Shown here in pieces: positions 33,001 through 39,000 of a stretch of 52,415 nucleotides of DNA. How positions within the stretch are numbered: position 1 is the stretch's first letter; the number at the start of each line of letters is the position of its first letter. Made by a program: the position numbers. The DNA is from a plasmid: the sequence record NZ_CP077974.1; one strand, given 5' to 3'.

Positions 33001-36000
33001 TGGCTGACGTTTGACCTCTGCCGCCAGGTCGCGAACGCCTTGGCGGCCTACAGCCACCGCCATCTTTCGGCGGAGACGCCTATCCATACCGTCGAGCTAC
33101 CGAACGGCGAGCGCTGCCAGATCGTGATGCCTCCTGCATGCGAGAAGGGCACGATATCGCTCACGGTGCGCAAGCCATCCCTCGACCGATTCAGCCTGCA
33201 GGACTACATCGACAGCGGCCGGTTCGACCAGGCGCAGTCGGTGGCGACTTCGACTGTCGAGCTTGCGGACTGGCAACGTGAGTTGAAGGAACTGCACGCG
33301 GCCGGGGCCTGGAGCGAGTTCTTTGCCCTGGCGATACAGCACCGGCTGAACATCATCATCTTCGGCGGCCCCGGGTCGGGAAAGACCACCCTCGGCAAAG
33401 CCCTGGTGGACCTGTTCCCCCGTGACCGGCGGTTGATCACCATCGAGGAGATCAACGAGATGAAGTTGCCGTTCCACGCCAACCACGTCCACCTGCTGTA
33501 CGGTGCGACGGTGACGGCCAAGGAGCTGGTGGCGAGCTGTCTGCGGATGAAGCCCGACCACTTGTTCCTGGCCGAGCTGACGGGCGATGAAGCCTGGCAC
33601 TTCATGGAGATCCTCAACACCGGCAACCCCGGCACGGTAACCACGGCGCACGCCAACGACAGTGTGTCGGGCTATGCCCGGGTCGGAGGCCTGGTGAAGC
33701 AGTCCGCGGTCGGTCAGGGCCTGGACATGGCCTACATCGAACGCCAAGTGCGGATCAGCTTCGACGTCGTGGTCTACATGGAACGGACCCACATCCTTGA
33801 AGTGCATTACGAGCCGGAGGCCAAACTGGCCCTGCTCAACCAAGGGAGGGCCTGATCGTGTGGTGGAAGGTGGTGCTGCTGGTCCTGGTCCTGATGCTGC
33901 TGTTCTTCATCGGCGGGCTGTATGCCGGTGGTGCACTGTTCCTCTGGCTGACCGATGCGAACCCGGGGGATGTGGGGCTCACCACGTTATTCGTGGCTTC
34001 GAAGCTGCCCCTGTCCGATCCTCGACTGCTCTATGTGCCGTGGTCCTGGTGCGTAACGGCAGCGCTGACGTTCCTGCCGGTAGGGGTCACGTTGCTGGCC
34101 TTCATGAGCCGCTTTTCAACGAAACAGTCGTTGCACGGCGACGCGCGGTTCGCCAACGAACGCGAGCTGCGCCTGTTCGAGTACCGCGGCGAGTACCAGT
34201 AGGCGCCTGCAGGCGCTTCACAACTTCGTCTTTTCCCGCTTGCCGGGATCCTCCTTCGGAGAAAAATCATGCTGATTCACATCGCTCCTAGGCTCTTAGT
34301 GCCTAGGTCCTTCCCTTCTGCCTGCGATTTAGTTGACGTGCAGGTGAAAGAGTTCGGTCTACTGCTTGCCGGTGGGCACGACGTAGTGGCCCGCCAGCCA
34401 TTTCCCAATAAGCGCTACTACGTGGCTTGCCGGAACAAAGGCCGTAAGGCAACGAACGGGTTGCTGATCGACGTGCCGGGCCAGGTGCCGTACTTCACTG
34501 TCATCACCCGCTGGAAGATCGCCGGCGAGATTGTTGTGCAGCATCGGGTGGAATACGTCGTGCTCGATGATGAGTTCGATGCGGTCACGGACTACCCCGT
34601 GTTGTGGAACGGGTTGTGCTTCGAGATGGGTGACTTCCCGAACCGTGTCACCGACGTGCTGTTGCAGCAAGCAAAGGAGCGAGGTTGTCCTCTTGGGTTG
34701 TCTTACCCTCGGGCGACCTTCGATCCACCGTCGTTCGACGACAGGACCCGCAGGCCTGTGTCGCCGGTCGAAATTTGCGAGCAGTTCCGCATGCCGACTA
34801 TCGAACCCGGTCGGCTGCTGCCTCGGGATAACGATATCCAGAGTCGCTTGCCGTCGCGGGAGTTGGCTTTCGTCGTGAGGGCCGAGGAGGTCAACTATGG
34901 CTAGCGCGGCAGGGGTGCCACAGTACAGTCCTTCCCGGCCGCAGCGGCGAATCACTCAGTATCCCCCGCTGTTGCTCGGCAAGCATCCGCGCAAAGACGC
35001 GTTCCTGGCGACCTACGGGCAGACGTTCGTCATGCTTGCCGCTCCCCCAGGGAGCGGCAAGGGTGTGGGGATCGTCATTCCGAACTTGCTCAGCTACCCG
35101 GATTCGGTCGTGGTTAACGATCCGAAGTTCGAGAACTGGGATACGACGGCGGGCTTCCGCGCAGCGATGGGGCAGAAAGTTTTCCGATTCTCACCGGAAC
35201 GTCTGGAGACCCACCGTTGGAACCCGCTGTCGGGCCTGCGCCGGGATCCGCTGTACCGGTTGGGGGACATTCGCAGCCTGGCCAGCGTGCTGTTCGTGTC
35301 GGACAACCCGAAAAACCAAGAGTGGTACAACAAGGCCGCGAACGTGTTCGGCGCCCTGGTGCTGTACCTGATGGAAACGCCAGAGCTGCCCTGCACTCTG
35401 CCGCAGCTCTACGAGCTGGCTTCGTTGGGGACCGGCCTGGGGCAGTGGGCGCAGCAAGTCATCAGCGATCGATCCGACGGGGAAAACGCGCTTTCAGAGG
35501 AATGCCGGCGTGAGCTGTACAGCGTCTATGTCGCCTCGCAGAACAAGTCCTCGGGCTGGTCGACTACGAGCGACATTGTGCGCGACGTGCTGGCCATATA
35601 CGGCGAGAAGACGGTTGCGTGGGCTCTTTCGGGCGATGACATCGACTTCTCCAAGCCCCGGGAAGAGAAGACCAGCGTCTATTTCTGCGTGACGAGTAAC
35701 GCGCTGAAGAAATTCGCGCCGCTGATGAACCTGTTCTTCTCGCAAGCGATCAACGAGAACTCAAAGGTGTTACCCGAGCAGGGCGGGCACTGTGCCGATG
35801 GTTCGCTGCGCTTGAAGCACCAGCTGCTGTTCTTGATCGATGAAATCGCCGTGATGGGGCGGATGGAGGTCATGGAAACAGCGCCGGCGCTGATGCGTGG
35901 TGCAGGTCTGCGCTTCTTGATCATCTTTCAGAGCAAAGACCAGCTCCGGGCCGAACGTACATACGGCCGCGAGGGGGGCGACGGGATCATGAAGGCGTTC

Positions 36001-39000
36001 CACGCCGAGATCGTCTATACGCCGAACGATATCGAACTCGCTACCGAGTACAGCAAGCGGCTGGGCAACACCACTGTTCGAGTCGCGAATGATTCAGTGA
36101 ACTACGGCGACAAGCGCACCAGGGGGCGCAGCTACAGCGAGCAAGCCCGCCCGCTCATGCTGCCGCAGGAAGTCAACGAGCTGCCATATGACGAGGAACT
36201 GATCTTCATCGGGGCGACGAAGGAACACCCGTCGCTGAGCATTCGGGCCCGAAAAATTTTCTGGTACGAAGAGCCGGTGTTCCAGGAACGGGCCAACATG
36301 CCCCCGCCAGCGCTGCCGACAGCAGACTTGGAGAAACTCAAGAGCATCACCGTTCCGGTCCGGATCGAGGAGAAGACAGCCGCAGTGGTGGCACCGCATG
36401 ACGCACAGATAAAAGCGGAACAACAGAAACGAACTTCCAAAAGCGCGAAACAGAAACCAACTTCCAAAAACGTAAAACAGAAACGAACTTCCAAAAACGC
36501 GCAGCAGTAAGCGCACACCATCGCAGTTCGCAAGGGCTGTATCAGCAACACACTTATTTGAAAGGAAAAACTAACTATGTGCAGGCGCGTTAATCGTGCG
36601 GCGGCACTCTATTGCCGTTCGAAAAAACACTTCATCACGGGCGTCGCCCTGATGGTTACCGCAACAGGCGTGGCTCACGCTGCAAATACGGTTGACTCCA
36701 GGTTCACCAACACCATTGTCACTGGCGACGGGAACAGCGTAACCGGCAACCGCGATACCCACTTTTCGGGCGCGACCTCGGCCAATGACCAGGTGATCGT
36801 TGGTAACCACAACACCCTGAACAACACTATGTCGTCGGAGATCATTGGCAACTACAACACCGTCACCAACAGCGATATCGCAGTTAAAGGCGAGAGCAAC
36901 ACAGTCTCTAACGCATATGGCCAACTGGTCGGGGACTCGAACAAGATCGATGCGGCGAACGGGACAACAACGGTTATTGGCTCCAGCAACAACGTCACCG
37001 GGCAGAGCAACACGGCTGTTGGCAACGGTCATACGATGACGGGCCGGGGATCCGTTGCGATCGGTGAGGCAACCACGACGACGGCCAGCAACAGCGTCAC
37101 CCTCGGCACAGGGTCTAGCAACAACCGGGACAACACCGTATCTGTCGGCGCCGCCGGCGCCGAACGACAGATCACCAACGTTGCCGGAGGATCCGCGCGG
37201 ACCGATGCATCGAATCTCGGCCAGGTCCAGGACGGTGACGCCGCGACCCTGGCCGCGGCGAAGGGCTACACCGACACCCAGGTGAGCGCAGAGGCGCAGA
37301 AGCGGGCAGACGAGGATAACCGGGTTCTCAGCACGGCCACGAACCACACGAACCAGGCTGTCGCCAACGAAGCGCAAACACGCGGACAAGAGGACGCACG
37401 CGTCCTCGGCGAGGCGATCGATCATGCGAATCAGCAAGTGGCGGCCGAGGCTCAAGCCCGCCACGCCGGCGATGCTGCAACCTTGGCGAGCGCGAACAAC
37501 CACACTGACAGCGCGATCAAGACTGAAGCGAAAGCCCGGGAAGATGGTGACGCGACGACGCTGAAAACTGCCCAGGACCACACCAACAGCCGTGTTGACG
37601 CCGAGGCTCAGGCGCGGGCGGATGGCGACGCTGCGACATTGGCCAGCGCGAAGGACCACACCAACAGCCGTGTCGACGCCGAGGCCCAGGCACGGGCGGA
37701 AGGTGACGCCGCGACGTTGGCCAGCGCGAAGGACCACACCAACAGCCGTGTCGACGCCGAGGCTCAGGCGCGGGCGGATGGTGACGCTGCGACGTTGGCC
37801 AGCGCGAAGGACCATACCAACCAGCGTGTCGACGCCGAGGCTCAGGCGCGGGCGGATGGTGACGCCGCGACGTTGGCCAGCGCGAAGGACCACACCAACA
37901 GCCGTGTCGACGCCGAGGCTCAGGCGCGGGCGGATGGTGACGCCGCGACGTTGGCCAGCGCGAAGGACCACACCAACAGCCGTGTCGACGCCGAGGCTCA
38001 GGCGCGGGCGGATGGTGACGCCGCGACGTTGGCCAGCGCGAAGGACCATACCAACCAGCGTGTCGATGCCGAGGCCCAGGCGCGGGCGGATGGTGACGCT
38101 GCGACGTTGGCCAGCGCGAAGGACCACACCAACCAGCGTGTCGACGCCGAGGCCCAGGCGCGGGCGGATGGTGACGCTGCGACGTTGGCCAGCGCGAAGG
38201 ACCACACCAACAGCCGTGTCGACGCCGAGGCTCAGGCGCGGGCGGATGGTGACGCCGCGACGTTGGCCAGCGCGAAGGACCACACCAACAGCCGTGTCGA
38301 CGCCGAGGCTCAGGCGCGGGCGGATGGTGACGCCGCGACGTTGGCCAGCGCGAAGGACCACACCAACAGCCGTGTCGACGCCGAGGCTCAGGCGCGGGCG
38401 GATGGTGACGCCGCGACGTTGGCCAGCGCGAAGGACCACACCAACAGCCGTGTCGACGCCGAGGCTCAGGCGCGGGCGGATGGTGACGCTGCGACGTTGG
38501 CCAGCGCGAAGGACCATACCAACCAGCGTGTCGATGCCGAGGCCCAGGCGCGGGCGGATGGTGACGCCGCGACGTTGGCCAGCGCCAAGAGCCATACTGA
38601 GGATTACTCGGTCGCGCGCGGAGTAGAGGCCGGGGACGGCTCGGTCGCTGTAGGCAAAGGATCGAGCGCGACCGCTGCAGGATCCGTTGCGCTCGGTGCG
38701 GGGTCGGTTGCCGATCGCGCGAACACCGTGTCTGTCGGCGCCGCCGGCGGCGAGCGGCAGATCACGAACGTTCGTGCCGGCACGGCCGCCACCGACGCCG
38801 TGAATCTCTCGCAGATGCAGGCCGCTGACTTGCAGACGCTCAACAGCGCAAACCAGTACACAGACAGCCGGGAAGTGGCAATCCGGCAGGACATGTACGC
38901 CGGCGACGTGAACACGCTGAACAGTGCGAATCACTACACCGACCAGCGCATCGATGCACTCGACAACTCGTTCAACGATGCACTCGCCGGCGCCTACAAC

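Follow-up and report, generated by a model that had tools for sequence, protein, structure and literature searches.

In the 52,415-nt stretch of plasmid DNA analysed here (sequence record NZ_CP077974.1; hereafter the window), which carries blaKPC at positions 9211–10095 (685 bits against a cut-off of 625) and a full virB1–virB11 set, the VirD4-type coupling protein (T4CP) of the type IV secretion system (T4SS) is encoded in two pieces. These are virD4N, the membrane anchor, and virD4C, the ATPase, and a gene for a protein of the family DUF6012 lies between them (Table 1). It is very probable that the two genes represent an old and working arrangement shared across a clade of plasmids, in which virD4 is not broken and DUF6012 entered the junction later. 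The original prediction had described a virD4 split by a ~0.7 kb insertion and had offered three readings: a split coupling protein made as two polypeptides with an intervening gene, an intron-like or mobile insertion, and an inactivated virD4. The first of these is backed by the evidence presented below. The insertion is not what split the gene, since basal members of the clade carry N and C adjacent to each other with no insert.

The coordinates, palindrome, stop codon, frame shift, 211-aa open reading frame (ORF) and overlapping stop and start given in the original prediction all hold on re-reading of the sequence. Two nucleotides separate the virB11 stop from the GTG start of virD4N, whose protein ends in ...SLHGDARFANERELRLFEYRGEYQ (...LHGDARFANERELRLFEYRGEYQ-TAG) with the TAG at 34200–34202. 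The gap of 694 nt between virD4N and virD4C (34203–34896) opens with the 14 nt GCGCCTGCAGGCGC (34203–34216). The 211-aa ORF lies in the frame of virD4N and virD4C in the +1 frame; the TAG of the former is found inside ATGGCTAG, in an 8-nt overlap with the ATG of virD4C. Together the two pieces amount to 114 + 537 = 651 aa, in agreement with the predicted full-length VirD4/TraG of about 650 aa. The same region is present, identical or near-identical, in 64 independent Pseudomonas plasmid records (at least 80% covered in 57 of them), so that an assembly or sequencing error is excluded as the source of the TAG and the frame change.

The two pieces of VirD4

The virD4C product matches the Pfam families T4SS-DNA_transf (PF02534; E = 3e-78, profile positions 44–459), TraG-D_C (PF12696; 2e-22) and TrwB_AAD_bind (PF10412; 3e-15), as well as the Cag5/VirD4 structure 8dol (E = 9e-32), and would provide the soluble portion of the coupling protein, which serves as ATPase and substrate receptor. 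It contains a nucleotide-binding domain of the VirD4/TraG family, the Walker A motif of which (APPGSGKG, 35041–35064) aligns with APTRSGKG of fused VirD4s. About 23 residues precede the N-terminal region ...PPLLLGKHP...APPGSGKG. A hydropathy scan found no transmembrane (TM) segment in virD4C: the transmembrane domain (TMD) is not on the ATPase polypeptide and is encoded by the separate 114-aa ORF in another frame.

In the same kind of scan the virD4N product displayed two TM segments (aa 1–32 and 63–86), and it carries a juxtamembrane LHGDARFAN..EL motif; we take it to be a putative two-helix membrane anchor with a juxtamembrane HGxARFA motif. Pfam and NCBIfam gave no match to the N piece, either alone or joined to C, because their models begin after the TMD. 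A tblastn search of 72,556 plasmids recovered virD4N homologues in 180 records from at least 10 genera, at identities down to 34% (137 records from Pseudomonas, 27 from Salmonella and 6 from Klebsiella, with Arsenophonus, Aeromonas, Pantoea, Erwinia, Enterobacter and others also represented); 101 of the 180 are typed conjugative. Among the matches listed, virD4N is either a small stand-alone 'hypothetical protein' or, in deletion derivatives, an unannotated truncated copy. RefSeq likewise has the two pieces as separate genes and names N a 'hypothetical protein'. Among 5.8 billion proteins, virD4N homologues fall into 79 clusters, all of 99–133 aa except for one 65-aa fragment, and virD4N was found inside a long virD4 neither in these clusters nor in the 180 plasmid records. 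The alignment has L92-H93-G94, A96-R97-F98-A99, E103 and Y109 as invariant positions and ...FEYxGEYQ as a common end.

The origin of the piece emerges from a custom profile of 27 stand-alone homologues, which was run against 1.84 billion representative proteins. It matched residues ~1–110 of proteins of 594–769 aa (E = 3e-11 to 5e-4), and all nine of these long proteins that were scanned are VirD4 according to Pfam. When N and C are aligned with fused VirD4s, as the original prediction had recommended, the break falls between two landmarks: the juxtamembrane motif LHG(S/D)ARFAN..EL, which it directly follows, and the segment 'P.ILxGK...Walker A', which it precedes. The system thus contains a TMD and a juxtamembrane motif homologous to those of VirD4-type T4CPs and, by this homology, the 114-aa piece is a genuine VirD4 transmembrane domain.

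Many T4SS-deleted derivatives (of the pT1del-KPC type) have undergone IS26-associated deletions that took the virB genes together with part or all of virD4N; DUF6012 and virD4C are always kept. Deletion end points in relatives correspond to window positions 34027, 34196 and 34253 (query positions 170, 339 and 396). Immediately 3' of virD4C lies a gene for a YadA-like protein of 896 aa (36577–39267), with a long array of near-identical ~26-aa repeats (DAEAQARADGDAATLASAKDHTN[SQ]RV). This gene occupies the same place in relatives, being unannotated in some records, and its product could be an adhesin for mating-pair contact.

Table 1. Features of the virB11–virD4C region, in window coordinates.
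Feature	Position	Strand	Remarks
virB11 (P-type DNA transfer ATPase)	32821..33855	+	ORF; named virB11 in 100%-identical records; last canonical virB gene
virD4N, 114 aa	33858..34202	+	ORF, GTG start; coupling-protein transmembrane domain
Spacer between virD4N and the DUF6012 gene, 66 nt	34203..34268	+	Starts with the 14-nt palindrome
DUF6012 (PF19475) gene, 211 aa	34269..34904	+	Junction cargo; 3' end holds the ribosome-binding site and start codon of virD4C
AGGAGG Shine-Dalgarno of virD4C	34885..34890	+	In the last DUF6012 codons, 6 nt before the ATG; read from sequence
virD4C, 537 aa	34897..36510	+	Cytoplasmic part: nucleotide-binding domain, all-alpha domain, C-terminal tail

The split and the later cargo of its junction

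Cargo in the junction is limited to Pseudomonas lineages, and N and C abut in the seven other genera. A 4-nt overlap of the two genes (ATGA or GTGA) is seen in pEU30 (Erwinia) and in Pantoea, Klebsiella and Arsenophonus plasmids, and the spacing is -1 nt in Salmonella, +5 nt in Enterobacter and +13 nt in Aeromonas; in Pseudomonas plasmids the spacing is 283–3,195 nt. In a quick midpoint-rooted neighbour-joining tree of 29 sequences, the C pieces from split genes, 18 in all, group in a single clade that leaves out the 11 nearest fused VirD4s. In this clade the lineages with adjacent genes branch basally, and those from Pseudomonas with cargo constitute one derived subclade. Since basal lineages have the same break without the insert and the split pieces form a single clade, fission came first and the cargo later; the insertion did not cut the gene. 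As far as gene order and phylogeny can tell, the split came before the insert and is common to the members of one monophyletic plasmid clade. A conserved and functional two-gene arrangement with no uninterrupted close relative is what was found, and this speaks directly against the insertion claimed in the original prediction.

We propose that a clade of gammaproteobacterial MPF_T plasmids inherited the split from a common ancestor in which a single fission had occurred, in the linker that joins the anchor to the 'ILxGK...Walker A' segment. The resulting genes would have overlapped by ATGA and been translationally coupled in the basal state, and the junction would later have become an accessory-gene slot in Pseudomonas plasmids.

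A different history would be that of insertional inactivation, in which a mobile or recombined 0.7-kb segment recently broke virD4, leaving pseudogene remnants on a plasmid that is not self-transmissible. Superficially the layout is like that of a disrupted gene: the first half ends in a stop codon, the second is in a different frame, and the DNA that separates them looks foreign. However, the identical break point without the insert in seven other genera does not fit this history, and neither terminal inverted repeats, target-site duplications nor transposase genes were found at the insert. An insertion sequence, transposon or intron was considered as the identity of the segment and rejected: its flanking repeats are only chance-level short matches, its sole ORF is DUF6012, and a search of Rfam gave no family at E <= 1, group I and II introns included.

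The last result also bears on the idea that one polypeptide (N+C or N+DUF6012) is rebuilt by an intron, an intein-like element, stop readthrough or a programmed frameshift. In the window N and DUF6012 indeed share a frame, with the TAG as the only stop between them, and in basal relatives the A-rich overlap (AAAAATGA) could in principle allow a -1 slip. But the in-frame relation is lost in a relative of 94% identity, in which the spacer is 56 nt long and virD4N ends in TAA, and the corresponding spacer of lineage L108 contains stops; the shared frame noted in the original prediction is therefore true of the window but is not conserved, and a readthrough fusion of N to DUF6012 was rejected for this reason. 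The gaps of other lineages contain an antisense VapBC-like pair or 1.5–3.2 kb of unrelated genes, which renders a common splicing or recoding mechanism implausible, and the ATGA overlaps are those of ordinary translational coupling. Reconstitution of a single chain is thus hardly credible.

The original prediction had also pointed to the perfect palindrome that opens the gap. The palindrome is present, with a GC stem of 5–7 bp, but is statistically ordinary, being one of 13 perfect 14-nt palindromes in the window and folding no more stably than shuffled sequence (z = -0.45). No terminator or promoter was called at this site by scans. The stem is kept in the 94% relative (GCGCC-CTGCA-GGCGC), and the palindrome is absent from the other lineages compared, outside the P. 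aeruginosa lineage. On these grounds it was rejected as a terminator, a promoter or an insertion boundary; a weak hairpin or attenuator is possible.

As for the cargoes themselves, the junction of the P. syringae group (gap of 283–1,547 nt) holds a GH25 muramidase and/or small ORFs, including a TM- or lipoprotein-like ORF of 54–77 aa coupled to C, and that of pPsv48B (3.2 kb) a 564-aa GHKL-type ATPase and a 315-aa ORF. In pMP-R124 the gap contains a long (308-aa) version of DUF6012, and in P. aeruginosa and P. protegens plasmids DUF6012, in some of them accompanied by an antisense PIN/VapB-like pair. The conserved 54–77-aa ORF (L002 3539–3769, L003 3033–3266, L004 2341–2505 and L007 2411–2641) has no family match. 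Its stop overlaps the virD4C start, and in its longer versions a Q-rich tail comes after a TM helix or an N-terminus that resembles a lipobox. The pPsv48B genes (L109 1150–3658), of which the first encodes a HATPase_c_3 protein and overlaps the second, could be an undescribed two-gene cassette. The antisense pair, of the toxin-antitoxin kind, is located between virD4N and DUF6012 in three Pseudomonas plasmid lineages (L104 3349–3923, L105 3348–4012 and L106 3346–3920). PADLOC gave no match for DUF6012, the pPsv48B genes or the other gap cargoes.

Selection and transfer

Comparison of the window with P. syringae and P. fluorescens plasmids gave ratios of non-synonymous to synonymous divergence (dN/dS) of 0.22–0.31 for N and 0.11–0.17 for C, at dS > 1. 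Against closer lineages the ratios are 0.11–0.18 and 0.06–0.10, respectively, and against the 94% relative the value for N is 0.16. Judging by these ratios, both pieces are maintained under purifying selection.

The same plasmid type is known to conjugate. pT1-KPC (CP138390) transfers from PAO1 to PAO1 at 3.77e-1, as compared with <3.7e-4 for a virB-deleted derivative, and it stops transferring only upon deletion of virB genes (PMC11659478); in this family self-transfer is abolished by IS26-mediated loss of the virB block. The order virB11–N–DUF6012 in CP138390 is that of the window, with a 100% match on both sides of the record origin. A second case is P. savastanoi pPsv48B, in which N (L109 437–811) and C (4007–5644) are 3.2 kb apart; the frequency of its self-transfer is 1e-2 to 3.7e-1, and recognition of several relaxosomes has been attributed to its 'VirD4' (PMC9791958). 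An inactivated virD4 is therefore contradicted both by the selection acting on the two pieces and by the transfer of the plasmid type. What insertional inactivation has in its favour, apart from the layout, is that MOB-suite types all 64 close relatives as non-mobilizable. The window, however, encodes at 47058–50882 a 1274-aa protein with an LPD7 domain and weak similarity to MobP1 relaxases (43 bits against a cut-off of 200, residues 880–963), which on this similarity is probably a divergent relaxase, and the label is most likely due to this relaxase going unrecognised and not to the T4CP. Recent inactivation of virD4 is, taken together, extremely improbable. The split is no defect for self-transmissibility, and the window still has virB1–virB11.

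TrwB, PcfC and MobB are non-functional when deprived of their TMD (PMC7431656, PMC7434980), and it would be simplest to suppose that N provides the anchor in trans. We envisage that virB11, virD4N, DUF6012 and virD4C would be expressed as one transcript and that the two VirD4 polypeptides would join non-covalently at the inner membrane to give a working T4CP. It is conceivable that the C piece alone acts as a TMD-less T4CP recruited by other T4SS subunits, N being kept for some other role, such as that of an exclusion-type factor or of a T4SS component in the inner membrane. Coupling proteins without a TMD form an accepted subfamily (PMC7434980), a TcpA mutant without the TMD still transfers, albeit at lower frequency, and the T4SS-deleted derivatives described above retain DUF6012 and C in spite of having lost part or all of N. 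Yet N keeps both the LHGxARFA..E motif and the two-TM topology that are found at the same position in fused VirD4s, and in about 10 genera it always lies directly after virB11 and upstream of C. The derivatives without N, moreover, no longer transfer by themselves and depend on a helper to provide N. We consider this division of roles distinctly unlikely.

Several observations weigh against a working two-gene coupling protein with a functionally linked DUF6012, and should be set beside the evidence in its favour. The tree from which the order of events is read has no support values. The conjugation frequencies of pT1-KPC and pPsv48B are whole-plasmid values. CP138390 lacks 53 nt corresponding to window positions 35022–35074, in the Walker A region, exactly at its circularisation point (position 1/62584); because the sister plasmid pT1 (CP138579) has DUF6012 and C contiguous and is 100% identical across these positions, the gap is probably an artefact of assembly closure and not a real deletion. 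The TraJ protein of pIP501 works as a TMD-less T4CP without a covalently linked anchor (PMC7434980) and, by analogy, the C piece could act without N. Finally, many plasmids carry DUF6012 in combination with unrelated T4SS types and in unrelated contexts, and the linkage of the gene to virD4C may reflect hitchhiking on a good expression site with no functional tie. The reading of virD4N and virD4C as the two halves of a working coupling protein is nevertheless the one that we prefer.

Two other observations concern the transfer region. A NusG-domain protein of 201 aa is encoded at 22217–22822, just upstream of the virB1-like transglycosylase gene, and may serve the long transfer operon as an antiterminator carried by the plasmid itself. 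In pQZPH16-KPC (L001 4038–4896), which has the same backbone, the anti-CRISPR genes acrF3 and a second acrF are found, together with an aca-like helix-turn-helix gene, upstream of the T4SS region.

DUF6012 and comparison with known coupling proteins

The 211-aa protein, called unknown in the original prediction, belongs to a database family of unknown function, Pfam DUF6012 (PF19475; 195 bits against a cut-off of 25, E = 1.2e-57, profile positions 1–199 of 200). It shares an invariant N-terminal M-L-I-H and other conserved columns with 60 homologues, the conserved part being the N-terminal ~115 aa. The protein is predicted to be cytoplasmic, without a TM segment, and its fold is confidently modelled as a beta-sandwich, for which there was no informative structural match; PHROGs gave no match either. 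By tblastn, DUF6012 is present in 2,165 plasmid records, mostly of Enterobacterales, 1,794 of which are typed conjugative. Its contexts include a place beside a topoisomerase in IncI2, one among small accessory ORFs in IncHI2, an IncP-like Proteus plasmid and Xanthomonas, and in a Klebsiella member of the split clade the gene is located 1.2 kb downstream of virD4C.

In five Pseudomonas lineages DUF6012 occupies the same slot and the 8-nt stop/start overlap is kept as ATGGCTAR; the motif upstream of virD4C is conserved as AGGAGG, AGGCGG or AGGACG in L104–L108. The conserved overlap together with the AGGAGG-like motif indicates that translation of the C piece is coupled to DUF6012, as read from these signals. 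In the P. aeruginosa/P. protegens branch the junction houses DUF6012, and the last codons of the gene hold the Shine-Dalgarno and start of virD4C, so that the ATPase piece would be coupled to DUF6012 instead of virD4N. Between lineages DUF6012 is 54–65% identical, as against 73–92% for VirB11, N and C. Its dN is 0.26–0.37 (flanks 0.05–0.19) and its dS 1.2–3.0 (flanks 0.5–1.5), the latter being higher in every pair, a pattern that suggests allele exchange as well as faster change. We suppose DUF6012 to be a fast-evolving plasmid accessory protein, either a T4CP auxiliary or a host-modulating factor, that would be dispensable for the chemistry of conjugation.

Several DUF6012 proteins (P0082, P0083, P0086 and P0195) bear the NCBI or UniRef name 'quorum threshold expression element/protein QteE', and DUF6012 might accordingly be a plasmid relative of the P. 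aeruginosa anti-activator QteE, which would dampen LasR and RhlR and make the cargo a means of host manipulation and not a conjugation factor. QteE (PA2593) is, like DUF6012, a small cytoplasmic Pseudomonas protein of ~190–210 aa, and its neighbours in PAO1 are PA2591 (vqsR) and PA2592 (PMC5767178). The window contains a comparable divergent pair at 19623–21673, in which a LuxR/GerE-type regulator of 271 aa (minus strand) is encoded next to a PotF-like polyamine-binding protein of 367 aa, and the faster evolution of DUF6012 relative to its neighbours would suit a host-interaction protein. In contrast, no chromosomal P. aeruginosa cluster is found among the 101 matches to the DUF6012 profile, NCBIfam models do not match the protein, and DUF6012 is nearby in none of 80 Pseudomonas chromosomal PA2592-like loci (all non-aeruginosa). 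QteE is encoded on the chromosome and acts specifically in the quorum sensing of P. aeruginosa; the genes for DUF6012 are carried mainly by plasmids of Enterobacterales, hosts without LasR/RhlR. The link rests on database names, and such names can spread from weak similarity. We regard kinship with QteE as rather unlikely.

In domain content and order, the joined pieces resemble canonical VirD4-type T4CPs (A. tumefaciens VirD4, R388 TrwB, pKM101 TraJ, RP4 TraG and H. pylori Cag-beta), with which they share the two-helix anchor, the HGxARFA motif, the nucleotide-binding domain with Walker A and B, and the all-alpha domain. The location directly after virB11 in an MPF_T cluster is also that of canonical coupling-protein genes. 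Unlike in these proteins, anchor and ATPase are here separate genes and polypeptides, with a third gene between them in the window, and the break is flanked by private extensions that canonical VirD4 lacks (...FEYRGEYQ on N and about 25 residues on C).

Closer parallels are offered by T4CPs with two partners. In pIP501 (TraJ, a TMD-less T4CP, and TraI) and in IncH plasmids (R27 TraG and TraJ), a soluble or anchor-poor T4CP needs an adjacent small membrane protein, with which it forms a complex resembling a VirD4-type T4CP (PMC7434980). The combination of a TMD-less ATPase with a neighbouring small membrane protein is found here as well, the two genes being adjacent or overlapping in seven genera and lying in the same operon region in the window. 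Those pairs, however, come from other classes of T4SS (Gram-positive and MPF_F/H), a slot for cargo between their two partners has not been described, and the partner is not demonstrably the former TMD of the T4CP, whereas virD4N is detectably homologous to the N-terminus of fused VirD4. Legionella DotL with DotM/N/Y/Z and Cag-beta with CagF furnish examples of small co-expressed helpers encoded near the T4CP (PMC12857230). DUF6012 is like such auxiliaries in being translationally coupled to the ATPase piece in five lineages, and unlike them in occurring also far from any T4CP (on IncI2, IncHI2, IncP-like and Xanthomonas plasmids). A VirD4-type T4CP that is split or has undergone fission is mentioned in neither of two comprehensive reviews (PMC7434980; PMC12857230, 2025), and full-text searches turned up none. 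While two-partner T4CPs are a known kind, the visible gene fission of a canonical VirD4, with the junction serving as an accessory-gene slot, appears to be new.

The split should consequently not be taken for a broken virD4 when the spread of such KPC plasmids is judged: transfer of this plasmid type reaches about 0.4 per recipient when the virB block is intact, as it is in the window, yet automated typing calls the type non-mobilizable. In hundreds of plasmids the anchor gene is annotated as a 'hypothetical protein'. An efficient VirD4-type T4CP with a separate anchor is a natural experiment on the linkage of TMD and ATPase (anchoring, signalling and hexamer assembly), and the two-gene VirD4 is a ready system for studies in trans. 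More than 2,000 sequenced plasmids, among them resistance plasmids of the IncHI2 and IncI2 types, encode DUF6012, and the coupling of this protein to the T4CP gives a handle for its study. As a speculation that we ourselves think more probably wrong than right by a good margin, the junction of the fissioned VirD4 could be a dedicated expression slot for fast-evolving genes of host or partner interaction, made in step with the coupling ATPase, and DUF6012, the resident most often met in P. aeruginosa, could be either a novel auxiliary subunit of the T4CP or an anti-activator of the QteE type; in the latter case the KPC plasmid would tune the quorum sensing of its host and quorum-controlled defences during transfer. 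In evolutionary terms, the junction illustrates that gene fission can create a hotspot for accessory genes.

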